A stretch of 64,000 nt of DNA. It comes from Candidatus Aegiribacteria sp. MLS_C (GTDB taxonomy: Bacteria > Fermentibacterota > Fermentibacteria > Fermentibacterales > JCC-6). The stretch lies in assembly GCA_002030045.1 (NCBI GenBank), contig LQBI01000024.1:202848-266847 (forward strand). Direction: 5' to 3'. Both the position numbers and the translations under genes were made by a program. This document shows, one piece after another, positions 15,927-52,625 of the stretch. Positions within the stretch are counted from its first letter, which is position 1. Every line of letters begins with the position of its first letter. Below the pieces are notes generated by a model. It was not told the origin of the DNA, did no database searches, and was given only the letters and a program-made list of their open reading frames with translations.

Positions 15927-16215
15927 AATCCATCAAAGGATTCCCGAATACCGGAACGAAACTCCCCAATCGAAAAGGCTCCCATGGGCATCAATGATAA
16001 CCTGAACCCCTTGTTATGCTGCTGCGGCATAACATCGAGAATTCCGGTGTTAACAAGCACAAGTGTATTGCCCTTGAACGTGTTATCGATATTGACTCGC
16101 ATATATCAATGCTTTTATTCTCTGTCAGCATAACCGGGCAACGGTGTTAACTTAACACGCTGCCGCATAATCATTGTTATGAAGAACCAGTTTGATTCTA
16201 CCGGAAAGGACCATT

Positions 16216-17940
16216 ATGAAAAAACTCTACTATGGAGACAATCTGGATGTTCTCCGAAGAGAGATAGCTAGCAATTCTATTGATCTTATATACTTAGATC
16301 CACCTTTCAACTCTAAAAAATCCTACAATGTGTTATTCTCTGGACCTACCGGTGAAGCAAGAGCACAAATACAGGCGTTCGACGATACTTGGAAATGGAC
16401 GCCAGAGACCGAGAGTATCTACATAGACATGCAAAACGGAAGCGTACCAGCAAGGGTTGCAGATGCGGCTCAAGCATTTCGCTCATTACTTGGTGAAAAT
16501 GATGTTCTCGCATACTTAATAACAATGGCTCCAAGATTAGTTGAGCTGCATAGAGTACTAAAATCAGAAGGATCCCTCTTTCTACATTGTGATCCTGCAG
16601 CAAGCCACTATTTAAAAGTGCTACTGGATGCAGTATTTGGAGGGCGGCGATTCCGAAATGAAATCGTGTGGAAAAGAACTGGTGCCCATACAACCCCAAG
16701 AAGGTTCGAAACAATACATGATATATTGTTGTTTTATGCAAAGGGCGATAATGCATACTTTAATCCAATTAAAACACCTTACACTAAGGATCATGTTGAT
16801 TCAAGATATACCGAAGACGAAAAAGGTAGGCTGAAATTCGTTACAGGCGGGAACATCCTTTCAGGACCTGGTGCTACAAACGGCGACTCGGGCCAACCAT
16901 GGAAAGGTTTTGATCCATCAAGCAAGGGTCGGCACTGGGCAGTACCAGGTTATCTTGCAGAGCAGATGCCAGAGGGATTCTCTGAATTGTCGGTAAGAGA
17001 AAGACTGGATGCTCTCTATGATGCCGATCTAATTGAAATAAAGAAAGGAGCTGAATGGCCGCATCCGGTTAAATACCTTGCGGATGATGATGGTAAATTT
17101 CTATCAGATATCTGGGCATACCAACCAGGTACAGAAGGCGTACTATACGGTACAGACCAAGGAATTGACGCAGATGTGCAATGGATCGGTCCAACAGATC
17201 CAGAAGATCTTGGATATCAGACTCAGAAACCGGAAGGTCTCTTGGATAGGATTATTAGCTCAACATGCCCGCCTGAAGGGATTGTGCTTGATCCATTCTG
17301 TGGTTGTGGAACCACAATTGCTTCCGCACAAAGGCTTGGTCGGAATTGGATTGGGATTGATATCACCTACCTAGCTATTGATTTAATCGAGAAAAGACTC
17401 GTTGCCCAGTACGGTGATAACATATCCGATGAATACGAGATCTTTGGTATTCCGAGAGACATGGATGGAGCAATGACTCTCTTCAACTCAAATCCATTTG
17501 ACTTTGAGAGATGGGCAGTTTCTATTGTAAATGGCCAGCCTAATGAAAAGCAAGTCGGTGATAGAGGTATAGATGGGATCGTGAGATTCCCACTTGATGT
17601 TGCTGGACGAAAGAGCGCGAAAGCAATTGTCTCTGTCAAAGGCGGAAAGTCACTCAACCCAGGAATGGTTAGAGATCTAATGGGTACAGTAGATGCAACA
17701 CAACAAGCAGAGATAGGTATTCTAATCTGCTTAGAAAATCCCACAAAAGGTATGCTTGATGCTGCGGCAAGAGCTGGGGTCTACGAATGGCCCTTAACAA
17801 GAGAGCGTTATCCAAAGGCTCAAGTCATAACAATAGAAGAGTTACTAGATGGCAAAAGACCACATATGCCTCCAACATTGCTCCCATACATTAAGGCTCA
17901 GAAATTTGAAGATCCGAGTGGGCAGATGAAGTTGCTATAG
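16216..17940 (+). CDS. Beta-class N6-adenine/N4-cytosine DNA methyltransferase with a C-terminal Mrr-cat-like restriction-endonuclease-fold domain.
   Basis: Motif IV DPPF (LIYLDPPFNS) precedes motif I (VLDPFCGCGTT). C-terminal GDRGIDGIV...VSVKGGKS resembles an Mrr_cat D...(E/Q)xK core. Low GC. GAAAGGA RBS. Confidence 0.75.
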   Translation: MKKLYYGDNLDVLRREIASNSIDLIYLDPPFNSKKSYNVLFSGPTGEARAQIQAFDDTWKWTPETESIYIDMQNGSVPARVADAAQAFRSLLGENDVLAYLITMAPRLVELHRVLKSEGSLFLHCDPAASHYLKVLLDAVFGGRRFRNEIVWKRTGAHTTPRRFETIHDILLFYAKGDNAYFNPIKTPYTKDHVDSRYTEDEKGRLKFVTGGNILSGPGATNGDSGQPWKGFDPSSKGRHWAVPGYLAEQMPEGFSELSVRERLDALYDADLIEIKKGAEWPHPVKYLADDDGKFLSDIWAYQPGTEGVLYGTDQGIDADVQWIGPTDPEDLGYQTQKPEGLLDRIISSTCPPEGIVLDPFCGCGTTIASAQRLGRNWIGIDITYLAIDLIEKRLVAQYGDNISDEYEIFGIPRDMDGAMTLFNSNPFDFERWAVSIVNGQPNEKQVGDRGIDGIVRFPLDVAGRKSAKAIVSVKGGKSLNPGMVRDLMGTVDATQQAEIGILICLENPTKGMLDAAARAGVYEWPLTRERYPKAQVITIEELLDGKRPHMPPTLLPYIKAQKFEDPSGQMKLL

Positions 17941-17947
17941 GAATCAT

Positions 17948-18018
17948 AACCACAGCGTGAACCAGACGCCTGTAAGAGTTCGGGGTAAATGCTAACGGCG
18001 CTGGTTACGCTGATTGTT
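17948..18018. repeat. Family-1 attC-like imperfect palindromic element, copy 1, immediately 3' of the methyltransferase.
   Basis: AACCACAGCGTGAACCAGACGCC ... GGCGCTGGTTACGCTGATTGTT: the arms are reverse complements. Bounded by AAC...GTT. About 85% identical to copy 2. Confidence 0.6.
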
Positions 18019-18034
18019 ATCTAGAAAGAAGACC

Positions 18035-18940
18035 ATGAATCAACTGCCACAGATGCTTTGTCCCGAGTGCTTAAGACCCATGGAGAATAACGGAAGTACA
18101 GTAAAACCAACAGCAAAGTACAAAGACTGTATTCGAAAGTGTCAAGCCTGTGGTATTGGTTACTCGAATTCAGTAGCAAAACCTTCACTGATTTTCGAAG
18201 ATCCTAGAAAGAACATTCCTGGTTTTGTGGACAGCTCAGATTTTCTCAAAATCCTGGAGAAATCCAATAACCGAAGGAATATCAGTAACAAGAAGTGCAA
18301 AGCGGGATTCTCAACATCAGAGGACGCAGTTACTTATACCTTCGTTAAATCCTTTTCTCAAGCTGATTCAATCGAGCGAATGATGAAAGTACTCGGACTT
18401 GAGATGAACAGCAACCATGTTGATTTGTTTCTATGGGGATGTCCTATTTCAAAAGGCACGGACATTACATTGATTAATAGGATGAATTCTTTGCTAAGTA
18501 ATGAGTTTGCGGAGAGGGCAAATTCTCTCACAGAGCCAGACATTATTCTGAGCGTTGAGGGCTACGGTATTGTCATTATTGAAGTGAAGTTGCACAGTTC
18601 TAACGAAGTTAAAGCAACTGAAAAGTTAAGCAATTATCTGGATCGCAGCTTCTATACTAATGTAGCAAAGGCAAAGTCCTCTCAGCATTATGAGCTAGTT
18701 AGAAACTGGTCAATTGGTAACGCCTTATCCGAGGGTTGCAACTTCACACTTATCAATTTAGGCAAAGAATCATTGTTTACAGACCGAAATGCATCAAAGC
18801 TACAGCTGTTTAAGGAATCACTAAACTGTAATAAGAGGCGCCAGTTTGCTCAGGTATCCTGGGAAGAAATTCTGAACAGATTAGAAGAGAGGGATTCTCA
18901 GTTAAAAGAATATCTGAAGAGGAAAACAAAGTATAGATAA
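18035..18940 (+). CDS. Putative restriction endonuclease: N-terminal Zn-ribbon plus a PD-(D/E)xK nuclease core.
   Basis: CPEC...CQAC ribbon. EPDIILSVEGYGIVIIEVK reads as PD-x13-EVK. Adjacent to the methyltransferase. Low GC. Confidence 0.55.
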   Translation: MNQLPQMLCPECLRPMENNGSTVKPTAKYKDCIRKCQACGIGYSNSVAKPSLIFEDPRKNIPGFVDSSDFLKILEKSNNRRNISNKKCKAGFSTSEDAVTYTFVKSFSQADSIERMMKVLGLEMNSNHVDLFLWGCPISKGTDITLINRMNSLLSNEFAERANSLTEPDIILSVEGYGIVIIEVKLHSSNEVKATEKLSNYLDRSFYTNVAKAKSSQHYELVRNWSIGNALSEGCNFTLINLGKESLFTDRNASKLQLFKESLNCNKRRQFAQVSWEEILNRLEERDSQLKEYLKRKTKYR

Positions 18941-41136: not shown

Positions 41137-42534
41137 TTATTTCCAGTCGTTGGATAAAACGGCTTTTATGTCGTCCCAGAGCTGGCCCATTCTGATGTCC
41201 CTCCAGAACCGCTTCCAGATGTAGGAGGGTCTGAAGTAGAACTTCCTGTGGAAAAGGGAATAGTACCTCTGTATCGTATCCCAGTCCAGGTTCTCGTGCT
41301 TCCAGACCTCCGAGGTGGAATGGAAATTGTACTTCCTCCAGTCCTCGGAGAGGATCCTTCCATCCATCTTCACCTGTCTGTAGAGGGCCGAAGAGGGGAA
41401 CGGCAGGGTCATGGAAGCCTTGGCGTAGGTCAGGGGAAGGCTCCGGGCGAAGGATATGCTCCTGTTCATGGTCTCCACCGTATCTCCCGGAAGTCCCATC
41501 ATGAAGAAACCCACGGTCTCGAGTCCCGAGGCGTGCGCCATCTCTACAGCCTGTCGAATGCGCTCCGGCGACTGCCTCTTGTTCACCCCGGCAAGTATCT
41601 CCGGCACACCGCTCTCTATTCCGAAGGAGATCTGGTAGCAGCCCGCCTCCCTAGCGAGCTTGAAGAACTCCAGGTCCACGTCCGCCACGTTGACTCCCGT
41701 GGGAAGGGCCCAGGGCGCGGGGAACTCCTCCTCGATAAGGAGCCTGCAGGTCTCCTTGGCCCTTTCGATATCGGCGGTGAAATTGTCGTCCTTGATGTGG
41801 ATGTCATTGAAGCCCAGTTCCAGCATGCGGAACATCTCGTCCACCACCCTGCGCGAGGTCTTGGACCTCACGTTATGCCCGAAGATCCTCTGACTGCAGA
41901 ATGTGCAGAAATGATTGCACCCCCTGTTGGTCTCCATGTACCCTACCGGATTCTTCCTGCTGGCTATGTGGGGCGATCTGTAGCGGCTCAGGTCGTGCAG
42001 CTGCCAGGCCGGCAGCGGAAGCGAATCGAGGTCCTCTATGAGTTCCCTGGGAGGAGTCTCGGTGTAGTCGCTCCCCCTTCCGAAGGCGATGCCCATTATG
42101 CTTCCGGGATCCTTCCCGGCGGCTATCTCCCCCAGTGTCCTCTCCCCCTCCCCCATGACGACCAGGTCGAAACCGCCCTCTTCCAGGGATTCCCTGGGAA
42201 GGCTGGTGGCATGAATGCCACCCGCCACCGTAATACAATCCGGAAGTTCCGAGTGGGCGATCCCCGCCAGTTCCGCCGCCTCGTGGAAAAGTGGAGTGGT
42301 GAAGGTGATCCCCACGATGTCGGGACGGAACTCACGAAGCAGCGCGCGGTAGGCGCCGAAGGGATCCATCTCCACCATCAGGTCCGCTATCCTGGCCTCG
42401 TGCCCGTCCCTCAGCAGCTCGCCGGCCAGAGTGGCAAGGGTGATGAAGGGAGCGCTCGTGATAGCCACCCTTATCTTGCTGCTGTAGTAGACCTCGACGG
42501 CCGACGGAGGGTTGACGAGAAGTACGCGGCTCAA
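41137..42534 (-). CDS. B12-binding domain radical SAM protein.
   Basis: N-terminal B12-binding Rossmann region. CNHFCTFCS is a CxxxCxxC radical SAM motif. Confidence 0.75.
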   Translation of the reverse strand: MSRVLLVNPPSAVEVYYSSKIRVAITSAPFITLATLAGELLRDGHEARIADLMVEMDPFGAYRALLREFRPDIVGITFTTPLFHEAAELAGIAHSELPDCITVAGGIHATSLPRESLEEGGFDLVVMGEGERTLGEIAAGKDPGSIMGIAFGRGSDYTETPPRELIEDLDSLPLPAWQLHDLSRYRSPHIASRKNPVGYMETNRGCNHFCTFCSQRIFGHNVRSKTSRRVVDEMFRMLELGFNDIHIKDDNFTADIERAKETCRLLIEEEFPAPWALPTGVNVADVDLEFFKLAREAGCYQISFGIESGVPEILAGVNKRQSPERIRQAVEMAHASGLETVGFFMMGLPGDTVETMNRSISFARSLPLTYAKASMTLPFPSSALYRQVKMDGRILSEDWRKYNFHSTSEVWKHENLDWDTIQRYYSLFHRKFYFRPSYIWKRFWRDIRMGQLWDDIKAVLSNDWK

Positions 42535-42559: not shown

Positions 42560-43936
42560 TCAGACCCTCCTGGCCTTGATCAGTGTTCTCCTGATGTTCC
42601 TGGGTCCCAGTGCGGTCCTGAGGGTCCGGAAAACCCTCGACGGGTGAAGGTAGAACCTCCAGAAAGCCCGCTTTTTCAGCCTCTCTATCTCCGAGGGCCG
42701 GAAGCCCTCCAGCTGGTAGACCGACCTCTGGAAGCAGTCGAACTCGGTGTAGTCCTCCCTGACAAGATGCTTCGTCCTCTCCCACAGCTCGGTGTGAGGA
42801 AAAGGGGTCGTTATGTCGAATACGGCATCGTCGAAGGGTTCCCTGGTGGCGAACCTGATAGTCTCCTCCATCTCCTCCCTGGTCTCTCCCGGAGCCCCGA
42901 GCATGAAGTAGCCCTGCACCCTGATACCCCTTTCCCTGGCCATTGCCAGGGCTCGCCTGACCCCCTCGACCGTTATTCCCTTGTCGTAAATGTCGTCCAG
43001 AACTCTCTGTGAGGCGGATTCCACTCCCATGTTGATCTTTGCCAGTCCGGCCTCCACCATGTGGTCCAGCAGGTCCTCCTTCAGCAGGTCGGCTCTCACG
43101 TTGCAGCACCACCTGAGTCCCAGGCCGCTTCCCGTGAGTCCGTCACATACCGTGTGCACCCATTCGGCGTCCACTATGAAGGTGGAGTCCTCGAACATGA
43201 ACGCATCTATTGAATAATCCGCCACCAGGGCTTCGAGTTCGGAGATGATGGAGGAAGCCGTCCTCTTCCGCATCCTCTTGCCGAAGATCTCGCTCAGGGT
43301 GGGCTGGCAGAAGGTGCAGGTGAACGGACACCCCCTGGTGGCCATGACCGACGTGCCCCTGAGATCGGGGTCAACCCTGTCCATGGAGTACCAGGTGGAG
43401 AAGTACTTCTCCATGTCGAATACCGAACGGTCCGGGAGGGGAAGCGTGTCAAGGTCCTCGGTAAGCAGGAGACCCGGAGCCCTGTGCAGCTTCCCGTCGC
43501 GAATCATGCTGAATCCGGGTATCCTCGAGGGATCCTCCCCGTCAAGGAGCCTGGCCCATGCCATCTCGGCCTCCCCGGAATAGACCAGGTCGGCCCCGGT
43601 CCTGGCCAGCGTGTCCTCCGGCAGGACAGTGGCGTGGGGTCCTCCGGCGATCAGCAGGACTTCAGGGAGCACATCCCTGCATATCGAAGCCGCCGCGGAC
43701 GCATCCGCCAGCTGAGGGGTCATGAGGGAAATGCCCACGGTATCCGGTCTGTAGTTCGCGAGCTCCCGTCTCATCTCCCTGAAGGGATCCTTCATGAAGG
43801 ACATGTCGAATACCCTGACATCCCTGCCCCTCTGACGGGACACCGCCGCCAGCATGCCCAGCCCTATGGGCGGCTGTCCGGACGGGTACCGTGTCTCCGG
43901 GAAAACAAAGAGGATTCTCTCCATTGCTCTGCTCAT
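42560..43936 (-). CDS. B12-binding domain radical SAM protein (second, tandem).
   Basis: CPFTCTFCQ motif. AAGGAGAG RBS before the Met of MSRAMERILF. The upstream part of ORF 42560..44236 is an over-extension. Confidence 0.7.
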   Translation of the reverse strand: MSRAMERILFVFPETRYPSGQPPIGLGMLAAVSRQRGRDVRVFDMSFMKDPFREMRRELANYRPDTVGISLMTPQLADASAAASICRDVLPEVLLIAGGPHATVLPEDTLARTGADLVYSGEAEMAWARLLDGEDPSRIPGFSMIRDGKLHRAPGLLLTEDLDTLPLPDRSVFDMEKYFSTWYSMDRVDPDLRGTSVMATRGCPFTCTFCQPTLSEIFGKRMRKRTASSIISELEALVADYSIDAFMFEDSTFIVDAEWVHTVCDGLTGSGLGLRWCCNVRADLLKEDLLDHMVEAGLAKINMGVESASQRVLDDIYDKGITVEGVRRALAMARERGIRVQGYFMLGAPGETREEMEETIRFATREPFDDAVFDITTPFPHTELWERTKHLVREDYTEFDCFQRSVYQLEGFRPSEIERLKKRAFWRFYLHPSRVFRTLRTALGPRNIRRTLIKARRV

Positions 43937-44281
43937 CAGGGTGACTCTCCTTAGATGGCTCGAGGATCCCGCAGCCAGCGATGGTGGATGATAGGAGAAG
44001 CCGGTACCGCAAGTCAAGCTGGAACCGGGAATTCCCGGCAGCAGGGGGGCCTGGGTCCTGAACAGCGTCCAGCCGGCGAACTGCGGGAAGAACTGCCGAC
44101 CGCTGCCCCATGGCCTGGCTGATGTCTCCGATATCTTCCTTCTGCATCGAGCCGTCCCGTATCGGGCAGCTTCCATGCTTCCGTGCCGACGGTCCTTTCC
44201 CGTGCGCCGTACTGAGGATGGACCGGCACTGTTCATTCATTCGATTCACGCCCTGAATGGAGGGCGAAGGGTCTCAGCAGG

Positions 44282-44806
44282 TCATTCCTCGGGTCTACCG
44301 ACGTCCCTGAGTTCGTGGATCGACCTTTTCAGCTCTCTCATGAGCCTCCGTATCTCGTACCTCTGCCGCAGGTCGCTGTCGTCGGCAAGGAGGCTCAGGG
44401 TAGAATCGGCATGCTTGAGCCTGTCCGAGAGCATCCCTGCCAGAGTGCAGCCCACGTGTATAGCCAGATCCGGATCACTCCTGTGAAGCTCCCTGAAGGA
44501 CTCCCTGCTCATCACGTACAGCTCTCCCGGAGCCACGCAGGTGACCGTGGCCGACCTTATGCCGCTCTTGAAGAAAGCCATCTCACCGAAGACGTCGCCT
44601 GATCCCAGGGCCGCCAGGACGAATTCCTCCCCCTTCGAGTCGCTGACCACGAAACGGCCGCTCCTGATCACGTAGAGGTCGTTGCTGAACGAACCCTGGT
44701 CGATTATCACCTCCTGCTCTTCCGTCGTACGGAATTCACAGGCATCTACGAAGTTCTTCTCCTTCAGGAAGTCCACCGGCTTGAACAGATTGTCTTCGCG
44801 GTCCAT
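44282..44806 (-). CDS. Cyclic-nucleotide-binding domain protein.
   Basis: cNMP-binding signature GSGDVFGEMAFF...RSATV. Confidence 0.7.
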   Translation of the reverse strand: MDREDNLFKPVDFLKEKNFVDACEFRTTEEQEVIIDQGSFSNDLYVIRSGRFVVSDSKGEEFVLAALGSGDVFGEMAFFKSGIRSATVTCVAPGELYVMSRESFRELHRSDPDLAIHVGCTLAGMLSDRLKHADSTLSLLADDSDLRQRYEIRRLMRELKRSIHELRDVGRPEE

Positions 44807-44822: not shown

Positions 44823-45353
44823 CTATTCTATCCTGTCCATCCTGGCGAAAACGGGTGGAGCCTTCACCGAATGGTCACGGGCATCTATTCTTCGGGACAG
44901 TATCCCAACCATCTCCTCCACGGCGCGGGAGACTTCCGGTGAGAGACCTTCCCCGAGAATTTCAGGCATTTCTATGGTCACTCCCCAGATGCTCCACTCC
45001 AGGTCATTCAGGCCCCGGAGTTCCGAGAGGTGTCCTACTACCGTGGGCAGGTCCATGTGATGAAGCGAGGCCGGGTACGCCCTGAGGGCGCTGTTCCTGC
45101 CCAGTTCGACCAGCATCCCCGAGGGTCTGCCGGCCACGGCGTCCAGGAAGATGAACCTGCCGCTCAGGGGGAGGAGTTCCCAGAGTTCCAGGGGATCGGT
45201 CTCCAGGCTGTGGATGAACACATCTCCCCTGTCACCGTGCATCTCCCTCAACCGTGCCGCAGCAACGTTCCCCGCGCCGTCGTCACCGGCAAGTGTATTG
45301 CCTACTCCAACGATGCAGAGGTCGTACCTCCCCTCCCGGGCACGCGGACCCAT
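44823..45353 (-). CDS. [NiFe] hydrogenase maturation endopeptidase (HycI/HyaD/FrhD family).
   Basis: CIVGVGNTLAGDDGAGNVAAARL motif. TAATG overlap with the upstream gene. Confidence 0.75.
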   Translation of the reverse strand: MGPRAREGRYDLCIVGVGNTLAGDDGAGNVAAARLREMHGDRGDVFIHSLETDPLELWELLPLSGRFIFLDAVAGRPSGMLVELGRNSALRAYPASLHHMDLPTVVGHLSELRGLNDLEWSIWGVTIEMPEILGEGLSPEVSRAVEEMVGILSRRIDARDHSVKAPPVFARMDRIE

Positions 45354-46075
45354 TATTTCGTGTACACCTCGACCTTGTAGGTACACTGGCTGTCGCCCGG
45401 AATCGACTCCTTGAGCTTCAGACGAGCGCTGCCCATCTTTCCCAGGTATCCGGCCAGGTAGTTGTAGAAGAGTACGCACAGGTCTCCGCCCAGCTCTATG
45501 CCCTCCTCCTTGCAGAGTTCCCTTATGAAACACGTCCCGACCTTGATGTCCAGTCCCGATGAACCGTCATAGTCCGGTTTCAGGTCCCATGCGGGAGCGA
45601 ACTGCTTCACCGCCATGTCCAGGGCTTCCTGGAAATCCTCGGGGACCCTGTACCTCGGAAGCTGCGTCGCCAGTGTCATTCCGGCCATGGTGCCCACAGC
45701 CGGAAGACTGCCACCCAGTGTCTGCCTGAAGACGGACGCCACGGAAAGGAGCCTAATTCCCAGGTCCTCCAGTGCGGCTTTCCTGTGCTCGTCGTCCGAT
45801 GGAGCGTGAAGCAGCGGGATATCAATCCCCAGCCTGGAGGCCAGGCGTATGTTCTCCTCGTCATGGTAGTGGTCCTCGGAGTGGACGATGTCCTCGTGGG
45901 TTATGGCCGATGCCGGGCAGATCTGGCTGCAGCTCAGACATCCGAAGCACTCCTTCTCCCTCACGACCCTGGGGATACGTTTCTCCTCGTCGAACTCGAA
46001 GACGTCGGTGGGACATTCGTCGACGCAGAGAGAGCATCCGACGCAAGCTTCCTCGTCGATCGCTATCCTGATCAT
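45353..46075 (-). CDS. 2x[4Fe-4S] ferredoxin domain fused to a V4R-like domain; putative hydrogenase electron-transfer subunit.
   Basis: CVGCSLCVDECP and CFGCLSCSQICP. C-terminal GGDLCVLFYNYLAGYLG is V4R-like. ATGA overlap with the large-subunit stop. Confidence 0.55.
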   Translation of the reverse strand: MIRIAIDEEACVGCSLCVDECPTDVFEFDEEKRIPRVVREKECFGCLSCSQICPASAITHEDIVHSEDHYHDEENIRLASRLGIDIPLLHAPSDDEHRKAALEDLGIRLLSVASVFRQTLGGSLPAVGTMAGMTLATQLPRYRVPEDFQEALDMAVKQFAPAWDLKPDYDGSSGLDIKVGTCFIRELCKEEGIELGGDLCVLFYNYLAGYLGKMGSARLKLKESIPGDSQCTYKVEVYTK

Positions 46076-47487
46076 CCCTCTGCCCCCCTTCTCACGGTAC
46101 TGAAGACCTTCCCGTCCTTTCTGAACTCCAGCTCCATCGGCATGCAGCCGGCGGCGTGGGTGGCGCAGGCAAGACAGGGATCGAAACACCTGAGGGCGAA
46201 CTCCGCACTGTTCATGATGAGGTTCTCGTCCCCGGTCGGTTTGTAGTGCTTCGCAAGCGCCGTGATGGCATGATCGATTGCGTCGTAGTTGTTCTGAGTG
46301 GCGACGATGAGGTTGGCAGACAGTATCTTTCCATTGTCGTCAGCCTCGTAGTCGTGTATCAGGACTCCCCTGGGCGCTTCGATCATTCCGGTGAAACGGC
46401 CTCCTCCGGGCCCGGCTTCCACCCTTATGGGGCCGTCGCCGAGTTCGCTTCCGCAGATATCGGCGATTCTCTCTGCACAGTACATCATCTCTATCAGCCT
46501 CGCCCTGAGGTAGTCTATCGCCGAGAGCCTCGGGCTTCCGCCGGCCTTGAACTCCTCCAGGAGCCTGTCCGCTTCGGGCGTCGAGAAGTGTTCGTTGACG
46601 TTGAGCCTGGCCAGCGGACCAACGAAGTACTTCTTCTCCTCGCTCCCCGCCTTCAGCCTGACGGAGCGCATGTAGGAGCCCTGCATGGGGTGCTCGACCA
46701 GGTTGTCCGCGTACTCCACTGCGGTGAAGGTCCTCTCCTCTTTCCCGGAGGGATCCACCACCCTGCAGACGTTCTCCATGAAGGTCACCCTGCCTCCGTC
46801 GGTGAGGGCCATGGAATGGAAGGGTACCTCGGCGACCTCGTTTATTTCAGCGATGTTCTCCAGTTTCTTCAGCAGGACGTCGGACAGCTCCTTGATCAGA
46901 CCGGCAGCCTCTACGCCCCACTGGCCCATCTTCACAACCTCTTCCGACTCCGGTCTGGAAGCCTGTCCCCCAGGGACCGAGGTGACCGGGTGCACACCCC
47001 TGCCGCCAACTATCTCAACGGTCTTCTGGCCGATGCTCCTGAGGCGCAGGATCTTCTTGACTATCTCCGGTGCCATTTTCAGAAGGGCAAGAACGTTGCG
47101 GTCCTGGGGTTTCGCCCCGATGCCCACCAGCACGTCGGGTCCAGTCAGAACGAAGGTGCTCAGCGAGTGGGAATGGAGTATGTGACCCATGTACATAAGC
47201 TCCCGCAGAAGTTTTGCATCGGCGGGGACCTTCACTCCCAGACCGTTCTCGATGGAGGTCACCGAGACAAGGTGGTGGGCGGCGGGACAGACTCCGCAGA
47301 TTCGGCCGGTTATCAGGGGGAGTTTGAACAGTTCCATACCCTCCAGGAGCTTCTCGAACCCGCGGATCTCAAGCACCTGCAGGTGGCCGCTCGTGATACC
47401 GCCGGAATCGTTCACGTCCAGCACTATCTTCGCGTGACCCTCTATCCTGGTCACCGGATCCACGTAGATCTTCTCTTTCATCATCAA
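46072..47487 (-). CDS. [NiFe] hydrogenase large subunit (cytoplasmic, group-3-like).
   Basis: N-terminal RIEGH and RICGVCPAAH. C-terminal DPCLACATH followed by a cleavable tail. Confidence 0.9.
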   Translation of the reverse strand: MMMKEKIYVDPVTRIEGHAKIVLDVNDSGGITSGHLQVLEIRGFEKLLEGMELFKLPLITGRICGVCPAAHHLVSVTSIENGLGVKVPADAKLLRELMYMGHILHSHSLSTFVLTGPDVLVGIGAKPQDRNVLALLKMAPEIVKKILRLRSIGQKTVEIVGGRGVHPVTSVPGGQASRPESEEVVKMGQWGVEAAGLIKELSDVLLKKLENIAEINEVAEVPFHSMALTDGGRVTFMENVCRVVDPSGKEERTFTAVEYADNLVEHPMQGSYMRSVRLKAGSEEKKYFVGPLARLNVNEHFSTPEADRLLEEFKAGGSPRLSAIDYLRARLIEMMYCAERIADICGSELGDGPIRVEAGPGGGRFTGMIEAPRGVLIHDYEADDNGKILSANLIVATQNNYDAIDHAITALAKHYKPTGDENLIMNSAEFALRCFDPCLACATHAAGCMPMELEFRKDGKVFSTVRRGAEG

Positions 47488-47518: not shown

Positions 47519-48430
47519 TCACTTCCCGGCCCATTCCCTCATCTCCACGGTAGGCTTCTTGTAGATGACGGGAGACGATAGAGCATAGGCGTAGAAAGTC
47601 TTTGCTTCGCTCTCCATGTAGTCGATGATCTCCTGCTGGTCTATTCCGGTGAGCAGGTTCATCCTCCTGGCGATCATCGTCCTTATATCCAGATGGGGTT
47701 CGGTTATCAGGTCGACCGATGGGCCCGCACAGCCGGCGCAGGCCACTCCCTTGTTGGGACACTGGGCCTGGCAGCGGTCGAGTGTCACGGAACCCAGGCA
47801 GACCACACCCTGGCTCAGAAGGCATACATCCTCTTCGAGCGCCACGGAGACGCCTCTCTGGAGTTTGACACCCTCCCTCTTCTCCATTCTCCGCCTGCAC
47901 GCGGAGCAGACGGTCCTGGCCTTCAACTCCGGTGCCTTGGCTCCGATCAGCGTCTTGAGAGCAAGCGCTATATAGTAGGGATGAGGGGGACAGCCGGGTA
48001 CGTAGAAATCGACGTCCACCGCCTCGTCGATGGGGATGACGCTCTGCTCGAGTTCCGGGGCTCCCTCGGGCATGGCGCCGTCCCTGGAGGCTGTGACGGT
48101 GCCCTTGTAGATCTTGTCCAGAATCACACCCTTGCGGTAGAGCCAGCCGATCCCCGACGGGCCTCCATAGACCGCACAGGTTCCGAAGGCCACCAGCTTC
48201 TTGCAGCTCTCCCTCATCTTCATCAGACAGTGCCTGTCGTGTTCGCTCCTTACGGCGCCCTCGACTATTCCCACGTCGGCTTCGGGATAACCCTTCTCGT
48301 CCATCAGGACGGGTATTCTGACGAACTCGACATCCTCCACGAGATTGAGGAGTTTCTCATGCAGGTCCACCATGGCAACATGGCAGCCCGAGCACCCCGA
48401 CAGCCACTCGGTCGATATCCTGGTTTTCAT
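47519..48430 (-). CDS. [NiFe] hydrogenase small subunit.
   Basis: N-terminal LSGCSGCH proximal-cluster motif. GCPP and C-terminal Cys clusters (CQAQCPNKGVACAGC). ATGA overlap with the upstream gene. The longer ORF 47519..48817 is an over-extension. Confidence 0.85.
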   Translation of the reverse strand: MKTRISTEWLSGCSGCHVAMVDLHEKLLNLVEDVEFVRIPVLMDEKGYPEADVGIVEGAVRSEHDRHCLMKMRESCKKLVAFGTCAVYGGPSGIGWLYRKGVILDKIYKGTVTASRDGAMPEGAPELEQSVIPIDEAVDVDFYVPGCPPHPYYIALALKTLIGAKAPELKARTVCSACRRRMEKREGVKLQRGVSVALEEDVCLLSQGVVCLGSVTLDRCQAQCPNKGVACAGCAGPSVDLITEPHLDIRTMIARRMNLLTGIDQQEIIDYMESEAKTFYAYALSSPVIYKKPTVEMREWAGK

Positions 48431-48915
48431 CCTTTGTCCTCCAGTATCATTTCCTTCAGGCATGCGTTGGGTCCGGCATGAAGGATCTCCAGATGGACTT
48501 TCTTGTCGGGCATGACCTTCTCCATGGCGCCCGCGAAGACGCCGTGGGCCATGTAGCAGAGTGATTCCTTCTGTTCGTGGGCGTAGCGGAACAGAGCGTT
48601 CCTGACCATGCAGGTATTGAATGTGAGGCGCATCACCTCTGTCCCGTCCCTGTTCTCGATCAGCTGGTCCCGCTCGCCCTTGAACGGCCGGAAGTCCCAG
48701 ACTATGCCCCGCTTCTCCAGCGCCTGCCTCAGCAGCTCGACCGCCTTGACCGGATCGTCGGTATGCTGAACGTCCTGCACCGCCTCCCGGCCGAACTTCT
48801 TGCCGGCCAGCATGCATATTGAATGGCTGCTCTGGCCCAGGTTCTTCTCCGAAGCGTGCGCCAGCGCACCCAGCAGATATGCCACTCCGTGAAGCCGATC
48901 CAGCATTTCTGCCAT
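48427..48915 (-). CDS. V4R-domain (COG1719-like predicted hydrocarbon-binding) protein.
   Basis: 162 aa. LCYMAHGVFAGAMEKV V4R-like CxxxxGxxxG pattern. First gene of the hydrogenase string. Confidence 0.45.
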   Translation of the reverse strand: MAEMLDRLHGVAYLLGALAHASEKNLGQSSHSICMLAGKKFGREAVQDVQHTDDPVKAVELLRQALEKRGIVWDFRPFKGERDQLIENRDGTEVMRLTFNTCMVRNALFRYAHEQKESLCYMAHGVFAGAMEKVMPDKKVHLEILHAGPNACLKEMILEDKG

Positions 48916-48953: not shown

Positions 48954-50453
48954 TCAAGGCCGAAGAGCCTTCATGGCCGATTCGAGCTTTCCCTGGTTCA
49001 GGAAATCCAGGGCGTTCCTCAGTTTTTCTATCTCCTTCGAATCGGTCCTCTTCTGCTGCAGCTGCTCTATCCGGTCGGCGACTGCCAGCTTCAGGGTCTC
49101 TATCTGGTTCTCCACCGACTGGGCGGACTCCACCATGGAACGGTACTTCTGGGTACCGGCCGCCGCCCCTCCCCCCCCTGTCTGTCCTGTCTCCTCCTCG
49201 AAGATGTGTTCGTCCGGTATCTCCGGAGGTTCCCGGCGGTCCTCGAGGTCCATGGCCGGCATGCGAGCATCTGTCCGGTCCCGCTGCGTCTCAGCGACGT
49301 CCTCGGTTCCCGGTTCCGCAGTTACGGTTTCCTCGGGTTCCTGCGGCGAAGCATCCGGCAGAACGGTTACGACCGGCTCCTCGGGTATAACCGCGGCATC
49401 CTCCTCATAACCCCCGGATGCTCCCCCGCGGTTCTCCTCGTCTATGTCGACAACGATGTAAGGCGTGTGTGTGACGGAGGCGTGCTCGATCTCGGGAGCC
49501 TCGTGCACGTTAAGCTCCGAGGCTTTGGGCCGCGGCTGGTCCCTCCTGCTCACCTGCATGAAGTTAAGTATATCCTTCACTATCTCGAGAGTTACTTCGT
49601 GGCCGGGTCCCAGCATCTGGGCCAGGACCATCCTTCCCGCAGCCTTCAGCTGCCTGACGTTCAGCTTCACGTTGGTCGCGATGTATTCGATTATCTCATC
49701 GTCAGTCTTTATCCCCGTCTGACTGAAAAGATTGCTCAGTATCTCCTTCCTGCCCTCCAGGTTCACTGTCTCCAGCTTGATCACCAGACCCGAAGTGAGC
49801 CTCGAGTAGAAAGAGGCGTCTATGTCCAGCAGTTCGCCGGGATGGACGTCGGACGAGGTGATGATGCCGTGTTTCCCCCTGGGCATCCTGTTGATCACGG
49901 AAATGATGAACTTCTGGAACATCATGTCTCCCTGGGAGAACTGGATGTCATCGAGAAGAAGCAGGTCGAAGGTGGTTATCCAGTCCCGGAGTTCCCTTTC
50001 TATGCCGGCTTTCAGGCACTGCTGGTACTCGATGTGCAGGTCGACGGTGTTGAGGATGAGGGTACGTTTGTGCGTAGCCCTGGAGATAGCGGCCAGGAGA
50101 TGCGTCTTCCCCTGCCCGGTATTCGCGTGCAGCATGACCGGAGTAATACTCTTCCAGACCCTGGGAATAAGTGCGATGGTGCGTGCTATCTCGGTGGCGT
50201 AGTAGTTCTCTTCGGTGGTCACGTAGTTGTTGAAGGTCATGTCCTCGGGGTAGGTGCTGACCAGGGTGGCCGCGAAGTCGTCGGTGCTGTGGAGCTGCTT
50301 TCCGGTCAGCCTTGGTACCGCCCCCACACCGCCTATTGCCTTGGCGAAGTTTATGATCTCCCTGGCCACCTCCTCCCCTACGAGTCCCGAATCCGAACAG
50401 ATCTCCAGGAATTCCTCGAAGTGCAATTCACTGAGGTGGTCCAGTTCCTTCAT
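48954..50453 (-). CDS. DnaA-like AAA+ ATPase lacking the DnaA-box-binding domain IV; acidic/coiled-coil C-terminal tail.
   Basis: TFNNYVTTEENYYATEIARTIAL, Walker A ANTGQGKTHLL, LLLDDIQF (Walker B), FYSRLTSGL (sensor/box VII). No HTH domain IV. C-terminus EEDAAVIPEEP...coiled coil. Confidence 0.65.
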   Translation of the reverse strand: MKELDHLSELHFEEFLEICSDSGLVGEEVAREIINFAKAIGGVGAVPRLTGKQLHSTDDFAATLVSTYPEDMTFNNYVTTEENYYATEIARTIALIPRVWKSITPVMLHANTGQGKTHLLAAISRATHKRTLILNTVDLHIEYQQCLKAGIERELRDWITTFDLLLLDDIQFSQGDMMFQKFIISVINRMPRGKHGIITSSDVHPGELLDIDASFYSRLTSGLVIKLETVNLEGRKEILSNLFSQTGIKTDDEIIEYIATNVKLNVRQLKAAGRMVLAQMLGPGHEVTLEIVKDILNFMQVSRRDQPRPKASELNVHEAPEIEHASVTHTPYIVVDIDEENRGGASGGYEEDAAVIPEEPVVTVLPDASPQEPEETVTAEPGTEDVAETQRDRTDARMPAMDLEDRREPPEIPDEHIFEEETGQTGGGGAAAGTQKYRSMVESAQSVENQIETLKLAVADRIEQLQQKRTDSKEIEKLRNALDFLNQGKLESAMKALRP

Positions 50454-50467
50454 AGCCTCTACATCCG

Positions 50468-51160
50468 TTACTCTCCGCCAAGTTCACGTGTTATCCTGCC
50501 CAGCACCATGGAAAGTCTTCCCAGCTTGATCTCGGGTCCGGTGGCGATCACCACGGTCTTCTCCGTATCGATCCCGGCTATGGCGAGGGAGACGCTGTCA
50601 CCCTCGATGAAAGCCTTGCCCGTAAGACCTCCCGGATACTCCGCCACGAATCCCTTTACGGAGCCCATGAAAGGCTCCAGCATCTGCATGAATCTCTCAT
50701 CGACCCCGGACCTGGCAAGGAGCTGTCCTTCAGGGGTCATCATGCATATGTAACCTATGCCGGGAATGGTTCCCAGGAGCTGGTCCAGTTTCGAGGACAG
50801 CACCCTGTCGATCTCGACGGAGAGACCGGCAGAGCTTGCAACGCCATCCTTCTTCCTCTCGTCGCGTTCCTTCAGGGCCCACATCAGTATATGGTGGAGG
50901 TCCTCCTGAATACTTGTCTCATCGGGTTCTATACCGGATTCGAAACTGAACTGGCCCTCGCTCCAGTCGACTATGTCCACCAGCACGTCACGGCCCTTCT
51001 TCTTGCCGTAACGGGCATGGATGAGTTCGCCCTTTCGGTAGAAGAACTCGGCCTTGCCATCGATGGATATGACCGTGAGCAACCCCGTCTTGCGGCTGGA
51101 ATTGGGGAACTGCAGGAGGGAGACGAAGCCGATGTCGCTCAGTGTCCCGTTAATGGGCAT
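50468..51160 (-). CDS. DUF4388 (PatA-N-like) domain fused to a roadblock/LC7-like domain.
   Basis: N-terminal GTLSDIGFVSLLQFPNSSRKTGLLTV...GELIHARYG. The C-terminal half has a roadblock-like fold pattern. Confidence 0.55.
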   Translation of the reverse strand: MPINGTLSDIGFVSLLQFPNSSRKTGLLTVISIDGKAEFFYRKGELIHARYGKKKGRDVLVDIVDWSEGQFSFESGIEPDETSIQEDLHHILMWALKERDERKKDGVASSAGLSVEIDRVLSSKLDQLLGTIPGIGYICMMTPEGQLLARSGVDERFMQMLEPFMGSVKGFVAEYPGGLTGKAFIEGDSVSLAIAGIDTEKTVVIATGPEIKLGRLSMVLGRITRELGGE

Positions 51161-51170
51161 TCAGTTCCTC

Positions 51171-51755
51171 TCAAAGTATTCGAAAACGGTTGATTATCTC
51201 CTTGCTTATCAGCTGAAGGGTCCTCATTACGCCTCTGCCCTCGGTGGCTATGGACTCAGTGACCGGTATGCCCTCGATGCCGAGTTCCTTCTCGAGGATC
51301 CCCAGTCTAAGCCTGGGATTGCAGTCCCTCTTGTTGTACTGCAGCACTACCGGGAAACCGTCGGGGTCGATTCCGTGGCTTACCAGGTTCTCGTTCATCA
51401 GCCTGTACATCTGGATGTTATCCTCGAGGCACTCGACCCTGGAATCGGCCACGAAGACGATGCCATCGGCTCCCTCGAGGATGATCCTCCTGCTGGCCTC
51501 GTAGTATATCTGCCCGGGTATGGTGTACAGGTGGAACTTGAGGGAGTAGCCCTGAACCGTCCCGAGGGATACCGGAAAGAAATCAAAGAAGAGCGTCCTT
51601 TCCTTCTCTGTGTCCAGCACCAGCATATCACCCTTGTACCTGTCCGTCAGCGTCCTGTGTATGAACAGAAGGTTCGTCGTCTTGCCGCTCATGCCCGGAC
51701 CGAAGTACACTATCTTGAAGACGATCTGCTTCTCAGCCGGATCCAGATGAGGCAT
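51171..51755 (-). CDS. mglA: MglA-like Ras-superfamily small GTPase.
   Basis: KIVYFGPGMSGKTTNL (P-loop), LYTIPGQIYY (switch II), DGIVFVADS, LQYNKRD (NKxD). Confidence 0.8.
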   Translation of the reverse strand: MPHLDPAEKQIVFKIVYFGPGMSGKTTNLLFIHRTLTDRYKGDMLVLDTEKERTLFFDFFPVSLGTVQGYSLKFHLYTIPGQIYYEASRRIILEGADGIVFVADSRVECLEDNIQMYRLMNENLVSHGIDPDGFPVVLQYNKRDCNPRLRLGILEKELGIEGIPVTESIATEGRGVMRTLQLISKEIINRFRIL

Positions 51756-52245
51756 CGTCCTCTTCACCAACCACGAAGATCCTGTCGATCAGGTTGAGAG
51801 CGTACTCCCGGAACTCGGGCACCGAAAGATCCTCCGCGTCCTCCTTCCTGGTCCTTTCCCTGTTCTCCAGTATCCTCAACAGGTCCGGTACTATGGACCT
51901 GGCCTCGTGTCTCACCCTGCCGATCCTTGTGTAGTCCTCGAAGACCACCACCATCATGTACCTCTGGCCGATGAGGGAGATGTGAATGTGCCTCTTCTCG
52001 CCCTGCTGAAGAAGTATCGAGAACTGCTCCTCGCCTACTATGTTAGCCACTTCCCGGGTTGCAGCGAACATCCCAGCCACCAGGGCGGCCAGGGCGGTGG
52101 AGTTGAGGCTCTCGGTGCTTCCGGCCTTGCCAACGCACATGCCTTCCCTGCTGATGAGAAGCGCCGTGACTGCCTCGGACCGCTCCACCAGACTGGACAG
52201 CAGTGTCGTGAGAGCCTGTGCATTACCGCTTCCGGGTAACTGCAT
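51733..52245 (-). CDS. Roadblock/LC7 domain protein (MglB-like).
   Basis: VTALLISREGMCVGKAG...MMVVVF roadblock pattern. Confidence 0.6.
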   Translation of the reverse strand: MQLPGSGNAQALTTLLSSLVERSEAVTALLISREGMCVGKAGSTESLNSTALAALVAGMFAATREVANIVGEEQFSILLQQGEKRHIHISLIGQRYMMVVVFEDYTRIGRVRHEARSIVPDLLRILENRERTRKEDAEDLSVPEFREYALNLIDRIFVVGEEDDASSGSG

Positions 52246-52268
52246 TCGATCCTCTCTCGTTCTTTCGA

Positions 52269-52625
52269 TCAGAGGGCGGCTTCGAGCTTGGGTACGCTTC
52301 TCCTGACCTGAAGACGGATACCGCCGAGGTTCGCGTCCTTGACGGCCACGATGGCCAGCAGTGCGTCCCGGCCGAGTGCCGTCATCATGACTATTCCACC
52401 CTTGTACTCCATCATGGCCTGGTCCATCTCCTCCAGACCCAGTTCACGTCCCACGCTCTCGGCGGAACCCATGCCGGTGGACACCATAGCGCCGATAGCC
52501 TCGGTGTCGGAGGATCCCGCGGAGGCCGCATCGATGACAAATCCATCACGGCCGACGCATACGGCCACATCTATGCCGCTCACCTCGACGAGTCCTTCAA
52601 GGATCTTGTGGAGTTCTTCCATTTT
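52269..52625 (-). CDS. Roadblock/LC7 domain protein (MglB-like), second copy.
   Basis: GIDVAVCVGRDGFVIDAAS...ALLAIVAV. AAAGGAAG RBS before the Met of MEELHK. Confidence 0.6.
   Translation of the reverse strand, partial: KMEELHKILEGLVEVSGIDVAVCVGRDGFVIDAASAGSSDTEAIGAMVSTGMGSAESVGRELGLEEMDQAMMEYKGGIVMMTALGRDALLAIVAVKDANLGGIRLQVRRSVPKLEAAL

Follow-up and report, generated by a model that had tools for sequence, protein, structure and literature searches.

A DnaA-type ATPase encoded with MglA, MglB, roadblock and PATAN proteins in Fermentibacterota and other phyla

The stretch of DNA analysed here (the window) comprises 64,000 nucleotides of contig LQBI01000024.1 (positions 202,848 to 266,847 of the forward strand) of Candidatus Aegiribacteria sp. 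MLS_C, whose phylum Fermentibacterota belongs to the FCB (Fibrobacteres-Chlorobi-Bacteroidetes) group. Its minus strand carries a five-gene module at 48954-52622 with a [NiFe] hydrogenase operon directly next to it. The two form a run of nine consecutive minus-strand genes, with intergenic gaps of -38 to +38 nt, in the order short roadblock protein, MglB, MglA-type small GTPase, fusion of a PATAN (DUF4388) domain with a roadblock domain, AAA+ ATPase related to domain III of DnaA, 162-aa protein (p162), hydrogenase small subunit, hydrogenase large subunit and ferredoxin fusion. A simple terminator scan found no terminator-like site between these genes on the minus strand, and the upstream end of the run is marked by a gap of about 390 nt and a divergent gene. 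The packing of the five genes is operon-like. An earlier reading of the DNA letters (the original prediction) had placed the five genes on this strand at essentially these coordinates, as a tight run just upstream of the hydrogenase genes. This was borne out, with 38 nt between the AAA+ gene and the p162 gene, and searches with hidden Markov models from Pfam returned Robl_LC7, DUF4388 and Bac_DnaA as anticipated. The start of the short roadblock gene had been put at 52625; the true ATG is at 52622, and the ribosome binding site GGAAAGGAAG stands upstream of it.

The AAA+ gene (48954..50453, minus strand) encodes a protein of 499 aa which is 100% identical to locus AVO35_04825 of the same organism. 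PF00308 Bac_DnaA (1.8e-22, aa 71-225) was the sole Pfam family seen in it, and Foldseek searches with the predicted structure gave DnaA domain III as the best match (2z4r, 2.3e-15, template modelling (TM) score 0.87; 8bv3, TM 0.90), followed by Hda. An alignment of 24 sequences of the ATPase family (alignment A1) was used with the structural model to delimit its parts. The N-terminal helical region (aa 1-70; 50244..50453) is family-specific, has no Pfam match, is modelled with helices at 4-9, 12-21, 27-39 and 58-64, and contains the invariant residues E14, F15, C19, F36, A37, G41, G42, V43 and P47. By eye it resembles a single MshEN or 'alpha-clip' repeat, as present in the fusion proteins P0246 and P0254 described below; profile comparison gave no significant match (hhalign E 0.031, probability 1.6%, no Pfam match), and the likeness is no more than a lead. 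The AAA+ core and lid (aa 71-300; 49554..50243), for which canonical DnaA was also aligned, show Walker A (GxGKTHLL, K116), Walker B (LLLDDIQF, D168/D169), an SRL arginine-finger box (R218) and sensor II (NVRxL, R267), and the numbered residues are invariant in A1. The SRL-box arginine is the counterpart of the E. coli R285 finger. Between strands b2 and b3 the model has two helices, at the position of the initiator-specific insertion. The catalytic residues of the ATPase are intact.

The core is followed by an acidic, proline-rich linker of 131 aa that is predicted to be disordered (aa 301-431; 49161..49553; predicted local distance difference test score (pLDDT) 33-44). It has an isoelectric point of 4.17, with 34 D+E against 10 K+R and 14 Pro, and its length varies in A1 around a conserved motif, SPYIVVDIDEE. 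The protein ends in a conserved four-helix domain (aa 432-499; 48957..49160; pLDDT 75-92) with helices at 430-443, 447-467, 472-486 and 490-497, for which a profile search against the PDB and Pfam scans of individual members gave no significant match (best PPR- or TPR-like fragments, E~0.2). The acidic or coiled-coil tail that had been proposed for this protein corresponds to the disordered linker and then this conserved domain.

The original prediction had also described an AAA+ protein with Walker A/B motifs and an SRL box that lacks domain IV, and both halves of this description stood: the motifs are invariant, and Pfam matched neither PF08299 (Bac_DnaA_C, domain IV) nor PF11638 (domain I) in the ATPase. 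It scored 153.8 bits against TIGR00362 (DnaA; cutoff 343.9) and 87.6 bits against TIGR03420 (Hda; cutoff 194.8). Canonical DnaA was aligned with Enterobacter DnaA as the ruler for E. coli numbering. In DnaA, V211 of the H-motif and K243 and R245 of the B-motif bind single-stranded DNA. At the V211 position the window's clade (F1) has Q, L, R or K, and a group of related proteins described below (F3) has E; at the K243 position F1 has D or N, the R245 position is variable, and the equivalent of R281 is lost in F1. A regular-expression scan of 39 family members for beta-clamp-binding motifs of the QL[SD]LF or QLxLxL type found no conserved one, and none in the N-terminus. Hda consists of the AAA+ domain alone (about 230-250 aa), whereas the 499-aa ATPase carries extra conserved domains. 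Because domains I and IV, the residues for single-stranded DNA and the clamp motif are missing, the protein lacks every DNA-binding determinant of DnaA and is predicted to be an intact ATPase that could not initiate replication in the known way, and it is not an Hda. Several sources name its homologues 'chromosomal replication initiator protein DnaA' and others 'DnaA/Hda family protein' or 'hypothetical'; the label of chromosomal replication initiator is wrong.

The GTPase gene lies at 51171..51755 on the minus strand if its ATG, which has a ribosome binding site, is used (194 aa), or at 51171..51770 from a TTG (199 aa), and it overlaps the end of mglB by 23 or 38 nt accordingly. Its product matched T. 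thermophilus MglA (3t12) at 3e-56 and M. xanthus MglA at 4e-52. The alignment contains the P-loop GPGMSGKT, the intrinsic switch I arginine finger in ERTLFFDF, the G3 motif LYTIPGQ, in which Thr replaces Asp and the catalytic Gln is kept (a hallmark of the family), and NKRD. The claim of an MglA-type GTPase with P-loop and NKxD was thus upheld, and with all the sequence features of the family present (P-loop, arginine finger, TxxGQ, NKxD) the product is unambiguously a true MglA.

Of the two MglB-like roadblock proteins that had been proposed, one is MglB proper. The 170-aa protein (51733..52245, minus strand) comprises a roadblock domain (Pfam Robl_LC7, 1.8e-8) and a C-terminal tail. It matched NCBIfam NF052242 (MglB) at 7e-17 over model positions 16-160 of 161, with 62 bits, which is below the equivalog cutoff of 200, and a phmmer comparison with M. 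xanthus MglB (6izw) gave 1.3e-17 over aa 17-160, the C-terminal tail included. With the roadblock/LC7 fold, the MglB-type extension and a gene adjoining mglA it is a genuine MglB, presumably the GTPase-activating protein (GAP) of MglA. The 117-aa protein (52269..52622, minus strand; Robl_LC7, 1.5e-16) was best matched in the PDB by an Asgard roadblock protein (7f8m, 2.6e-7) and by CvnB5 (3leq, 4.5e-7), and its match to MglB in the same search reached 0.02 only, which marks it as a generic roadblock protein and not MglB proper.

The PATAN-roadblock fusion (230 aa; 50468..51160, minus strand) carries a PATAN domain at aa 5-103 (50852..51148) which matched PF14332 (DUF4388) at 2.2e-18, with 66.9 bits against a gathering cutoff of 25. 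Pfam gave no roadblock match for the C-terminal half. At aa 119-228 (50477..50806) an a-b-b-a-b-b-b-a fold is seen in the AlphaFold model (pLDDT 83.5), and every top Foldseek match of this part in the PDB was a roadblock protein (p14/MP1, 1.6e-6; CvnB 3leq, TM 0.80; MglB 6h5b, 2.2e-5; LAMTOR proteins), while a family profile of the domain against PDB roadblock proteins was marginal (0.024-1.1). Because the model has this topology and the top matches are roadblock proteins only, the earlier count of three roadblock domains in the run (short protein, MglB and C-terminal half of the fusion) is right, and so is its DUF4388-roadblock fusion; the roadblock/LC7 fold is found in the short protein as well as in aa 119-228 of the fusion. 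Proteins of this type are already annotated in Geobacter as 'PATAN domain GTPase-activating protein'; one of them, GSU2641, was followed as a lead and dropped, its neighbours GSU2642-45 being extABCD. The fusion is presumed to act as an adaptor.

Related loci, referred to here by L numbers, were gathered by looking up exact proteins, by scanning genomes and by scanning metagenomes with an alignment specific to the N-terminus, and were scored with the window proteins. When the full-length alignment was used the genome scan was swamped by canonical DnaA and yielded two true loci; the alignment of the N-terminus gave 28 specific metagenome loci. The ATPase family consists of about 77 clusters at 31-100% identity, separated from the rest by a drop in score from 255 to 132 bits, and its named members are Ca. 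Fermentibacter daniensis, Ca. Sabulitectum and Aegiribacteria. The genes for MglB, MglA, the PATAN-roadblock fusion and the ATPase kept this order on one strand in 25 of the 26 related loci with enough upstream DNA. Within the Fermentibacterota the loci represent about 10 lineages in which ATPase identity falls to about 37%, and to 31% in L118. The orthologue of the short roadblock protein is placed either upstream or downstream of the module. The mglB/mglA and PATAN/ATPase pairs usually overlap by 1-20 nt in relatives, which suggests translational coupling; in the window the stop of the fusion lies 14 nt ahead of the ATPase start. As gene order is kept in dozens of loci, chance adjacency is excluded. 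Loci L104 (1-8371) and L105 (1-8734) form the exception and are arranged differently: roadblock, MglB, PATAN and ATPase genes are followed by two V4R genes, a gene for a 180-aa protein and a class-V-aminotransferase-like gene, then by a second roadblock-MglB pair, then by MglA, p162 and the hydrogenase genes.

An exhaustive profile search that covered 1.84 billion representatives extended these observations beyond the phylum, where the taxon labels come from metagenome-assembled genomes (MAGs). The window's clade F1 is small (about 6 clusters at 50% identity) and grades into many proteins of about 350-435 aa, the F3 group, whose members are named by their sources as Thermodesulfobacteriota and Pseudomonadota MAGs. 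F3 proteins share the N-terminal motif of F1 and also its C-terminal helical domain of about 65 aa, a family hallmark. In a distance tree of the AAA+ core F1 and F3 formed one group apart from canonical DnaA with 100/100 bootstrap, and both have a deletion of 4-5 aa relative to canonical DnaA. The full orthologous module was present in two F3 loci, L124 (a Thermodesulfobacteriota MAG) and L125, in which the window proteins scored 175-181 bits for MglB, 258-274 for MglA, 103-118 for PATAN, 159-163 for the AAA+ protein and 75-105 for the short roadblock protein. REC and REC-PATAN regulators lie upstream in both, with histidine kinases near. A third, partial F3 locus, L123 (a Pseudomonadota-labelled MAG), holds the 3' end of the ATPase gene followed by roadblock and ankyrin genes. 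An ankyrin-repeat protein of about 410 aa (46% identity) follows the module in L123 (1907-3157) and L124 (10912-12132), and in L125 its place is taken by a second, weak PATAN+roadblock protein (318 aa). A 152-aa PF27323 ('RdxA_C') protein without a counterpart in the window recurs next to the module, each time in a pair with a short roadblock gene (L087:3662-4486 and 5117-5941; L123:938-1800; L124:9651-10535).

The set and order of the module are conserved across phyla. The original prediction had named two findings that would count against it, a neighbourhood not conserved in relatives and a truncated dnaA. The first did not hold, the order being kept to 31-40% ATPase identity within Fermentibacterota and in other phyla. 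The second, that the ATPase gene is a truncated dnaA pseudogene, or else the phylum's real initiator, beside mglAB by chance, would fit a DnaA-type Pfam match limited to the ATPase domain and the initiator label given to homologues. However, tblastn searches of the whole window with DnaA domains I and IV gave scattered matches only (E>0.04), and ten domain IV sequences gave only E>0.2, so no remnant of either domain was detected. In more than 70 clusters the protein is conserved at full length, complete with N- and C-terminal domains of its own, the residues that bind single-stranded DNA are replaced, the gene order is kept across phyla and the clade is distinct in the tree. We give an artefact or decaying gene practically no credence.

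A further family, F2, was found which consists of proteins of about 650 aa with two tandem DnaA-III domains and no domain IV, one of them from Gemmatimonadota. F2 genes stand directly after, and overlap, an MglA-like gene, with roadblock, TPR-roadblock and PATAN-TPR genes adjoining, in four distinct loci, all of Gemmatimonadota type (L117, L120, L121 and L126; a fifth contig, which is short, repeats one of these). CheA/CheC and/or CheR/CheD/CheB/CheW genes lie alongside in three of the four (L117, L120, L126), and there are none in the recovered portion of L121. The system is wider than the window, occurring in several phyla and including a tandem-ATPase variant mostly in Che clusters. In F2 as in F1+F3, MglA, roadblock and PATAN genes are repeatedly accompanied by a DnaA-type ATPase that has no DNA-binding domains.

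More distant DnaA-III-only proteins were also seen, in which the ATPase domain is part of large fusions (P0246, P0254, P0307, P0275). MshEN together with two Bac_DnaA domains (about 1.9 thousand aa) was found in P0246 and P0254, and other combinations were a TPR array with Bac_DnaA and a NACHT-like segment with Bac_DnaA and DUF835; DnaA-like proteins of the archaeon Ca. Saliniplasma likewise end in DUF835. MshEN is the N-terminal domain of PilB, of the cyclic di-GMP-binding type. One protein, P0250, was considered as an ATPase-roadblock fusion and dropped, as PDB and Pfam searches gave it no backing.

That some of these distant relatives carry NACHT- or STAND-like segments, and that many defence systems combine P-loop NTPases, could point to an anti-phage defence or conflict system built on the AAA+ ATPase and the GTPase. 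However, PADLOC returned no match for the five proteins beyond two weak generic P-loop hits (1e-3 and 4e-3) and no effector domain (nuclease, TIR or protease) is present, while the module is inherited vertically within the phylum, in a fixed place beside housekeeping genes, and its GC content is native, unlike that of the restriction-modification island at 16-24 kb of the window. A defence role seems very improbable to us.

The kinship with DnaA raises another explanation, an Hda-like regulator, in which the ATPase would contact genuine DnaA and promote or block its ATP hydrolysis, and MglA would gate replication by polarity or signalling state. The closest relatives by sequence and structure are DnaA domain III and then Hda, the arginine finger and sensor II are invariant, and Hda itself is generally known to act through such a contact between AAA+ proteins. 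The motif for the beta clamp is nevertheless not conserved among the 39 members scanned, the ATPase falls below both the Hda and the DnaA family cutoffs, the R281 equivalent is lost in F1, the tandem variant sits in Che clusters, and replication genes are never among the neighbours, which belong to signalling (REC, PATAN, Che, histidine kinases). We consider an Hda-like regulator quite unlikely, and we would lend still less weight to the specific proposal that the ATPase contacts real DnaA through its arginine finger, with a signal-fed MglA switch directly gating chromosome replication; if true, the ATPase would be a physical link of cell polarity or behaviour to replication initiation.

The explanation we favour, with slightly more confidence than doubt, is a conserved five-protein small-GTPase switch module made up of MglA, its MglB GAP, a free roadblock protein, a PATAN-roadblock adaptor and a non-replicative AAA+ ATPase derived from DnaA domain III. 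It could be a two-nucleotide (GTP/ATP) signalling or polarity module with the DnaA-derived ATPase as switch or scaffold. The GTP state of MglA would be set by MglB, either by itself or in partnership with the other roadblock domains in a platform of the Ragulator or MglB/MglC type, on which the PATAN-roadblock protein may dock via its roadblock half. The PATAN half may then engage the ATPase, a contact proposed because the two genes appear translationally coupled and because PATAN is known as an output domain that in Synechocystis binds PilC and the pilus ATPase PilB1, the latter through its N-terminal part (10.1101/2021.06.11.447907). The trans-acting arginine finger and the two helices at the initiator-specific insertion site would suit an ATP-dependent oligomeric switch or scaffold which assembles and disassembles in the manner of initiator-clade AAA+ proteins, and not an unfoldase or a DNA melter, with the acidic linker and the C-terminal helical domain recruiting targets. 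The output is likely to be spatial or signalling control, for instance of cell polarity or of type IV pili, with two-component or chemosensory systems as the input. A signalling or polarity role is suggested by the REC-PATAN, Che and histidine kinase neighbours, and polarity or localisation by what MglA/MglB and PATAN are known to do; as the Fermentibacterota hosts are rods and possess genes for type IV pili (PMC5030696, PMC4846661), pilus polarity is a reasonable output.

We have to admit that several observations weigh against this switch module. The conserved neighbour in Fermentibacterota is a hydrogenase, which a polarity role does not explain, and nothing motility-related adjoins the module in the loci of this phylum. 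In L104 and L105 the module is split, a duplicated roadblock-MglB pair and a 3.5-kb insert with two V4R proteins and the aminotransferase-like gene lying between PATAN-ATPase and mglA. The contexts outside Fermentibacterota comprise three F3 loci and four distinct F2 loci, and F2 joined F1 and F3 with 48% bootstrap only, so that F2 may be an independent derivative of DnaA. The PATAN-ATPase contact would follow from gene coupling and from analogy with PilB, and the likeness of the ATPase N-terminus to the MshEN repeat was not significant (hhalign values given above).

The module was compared with described systems. The window MglA resembles the solved MglA proteins of M. xanthus and T. thermophilus about as closely as these resemble each other, and the Thr-for-Asp G3, the intrinsic Arg, the catalytic Gln, the MglB tail and the mglB-mglA overlap are all features of those systems. 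Extra roadblock proteins accompany the pair, as the roadblock paralogue MglC does in MglA/MglB systems. Unlike in these, no RomR, RomX or Frz gene was seen near the window module, and the PATAN-roadblock fusion and the DnaA-derived ATPase are added as fixed members. PATAN is encoded beside MglA/MglB as for PatA-type regulators (Synechocystis PixG, PixE and LsiR), and the REC-PATAN genes upstream in L124 and L125 are of that kind; the window PATAN, however, is fused to a roadblock domain and not to a receiver, and the adjoining ATPase is of the DnaA clade and not a PilB/GspE secretion ATPase. With DnaA and Hda the ATPase has in common the AAA+ domain-III fold (TM 0.87-0.90), Walker A/B, the SRL box and sensor II, and it differs by its own N- and C-terminal domains, the long acidic linker, a separate clade and scores below both cutoffs. 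The Streptomyces conservon (CvnA-D) likewise combines an MglA-like GTPase and a roadblock protein in one operon with further conserved partners, and the window short roadblock resembles CvnB5; unlike the conservon, neither the window nor the related-locus operons contain a CvnA-type histidine kinase or CvnC (DUF742). Several roadblock domains could form a small-GTPase platform as in Ragulator-Rag, to which the p14/MP1 and LAMTOR Foldseek matches correspond, and in dynein LC7 a roadblock/LC7 protein accompanies an AAA+ protein, the motor. These last two are likenesses of fold and logic without orthology, the window AAA+ protein belonging to the initiator clade and not to the dynein type.

The genomic association of MglA/MglB with PATAN was noted before (Makarova et al. 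2006; Wuichet and Sogaard-Andersen 2014, PMC4316618). Full-text literature searches found no paper tying a DnaA-like ATPase to MglA, roadblock or PATAN proteins, in agreement with the earlier statement that such an ATPase is not a described MglAB partner, and the suggestion of an undescribed GTPase-ATPase module gained the support of comparative genomics through the conserved set and order of genes. What is new is the conserved DnaA-derived ATPase within a known MglA/MglB/PATAN kind of system. MglA and MglB serve as the model of the way in which bacteria set up and reverse a front-rear axis, and the partners described for them (RomR/RomX, MglC, RomY, SgmX and others) are for the most part limited to myxobacteria; a partner set found across phyla would point to an older, more general design coupling a GTP switch to an ATP switch. 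The ATPase module of the replication initiator would have been reused outside DNA replication at least once in single-domain and once in tandem form, which bears on the evolution of initiator-clade AAA+ proteins and on the annotation of the many such genes labelled as the initiator DnaA.

The hydrogenase operon begins with p162 (48427..48915; Pfam V4R at 0.096 only) and continues with the [NiFe] hydrogenase small subunit (47519-48433; Oxidored_q6, 4.9e-27), the large subunit (46072-47487; NiFeSe_Hases, 6.3e-26), for which large subunits of relatives also match HoxH, and a 2x[4Fe-4S] ferredoxin fusion (45353-46075; Fer4 families), all on the minus strand. The p162 gene always accompanies hydrogenase genes and is absent where these are absent. 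As a V4R/TRAPPC3-like partner of the GTPase p162 was rejected, on the V4R value and on its tracking with the hydrogenase and not the module. This operon follows the module in about 8 of the 10 Fermentibacterota lineages while the outer flanks differ, with only hypF, hypD and hypE between the two in L114, and in this phylum the module is probably co-transcribed with the operon, which is that of a cytoplasmic [NiFe] hydrogenase.

An accessory system that controls assembly, localisation or expression of the hydrogenase, perhaps with redox or H2 sensing via V4R-like proteins, could account for this adjacency, for the 38-nt gap without a terminator-like site, and for L104, where mglA remains by the hydrogenase after rearrangement and V4R genes lie in the insert. 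However, the module occurs without hydrogenase in Ca. F. daniensis, L087, L118, L124 and L125, p162 goes with the hydrogenase and not with the module, and the tandem variant sits in Che clusters. To our knowledge, hydrogenase biology offers no earlier case that involves MglA, roadblock or PATAN proteins, and we hold a hydrogenase accessory role to be unlikely. Because the module is found without hydrogenase in some lineages and in other phyla, the link is lineage-specific: the adjacency is real but specific to Fermentibacterota, and the hydrogenase is not part of the core module.

Some minor observations concern the surroundings. The hydrogenase operon is framed by p162 and by the C-terminal half of the ferredoxin fusion, both of them small, Cys-containing and weakly V4R- or ATC_hydrolase-like, and in L086 the module is preceded by a V4R/XylR_N gene (5340-5984). 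Directly after the hydrogenase genes of the window come a protein that binds cyclic nucleotide monophosphates (44282-44806) and two B12-binding radical SAM enzymes (42560-44236 and 41137-42534). No tRNA gene was found anywhere in the window. Between 16000 and 24500 the GC content falls to 0.43-0.49 from about 0.60, in a region with a fusion of an N6/N4 DNA methylase to an inactive-restriction-endonuclease (REase)-like part (16192-17940), an REase-ARP-like protein (18014-18940), a short-chain dehydrogenase and an FG-GAP protein with a type IX secretion system sorting tail, and this low-GC region is probably a horizontally acquired restriction-modification island.

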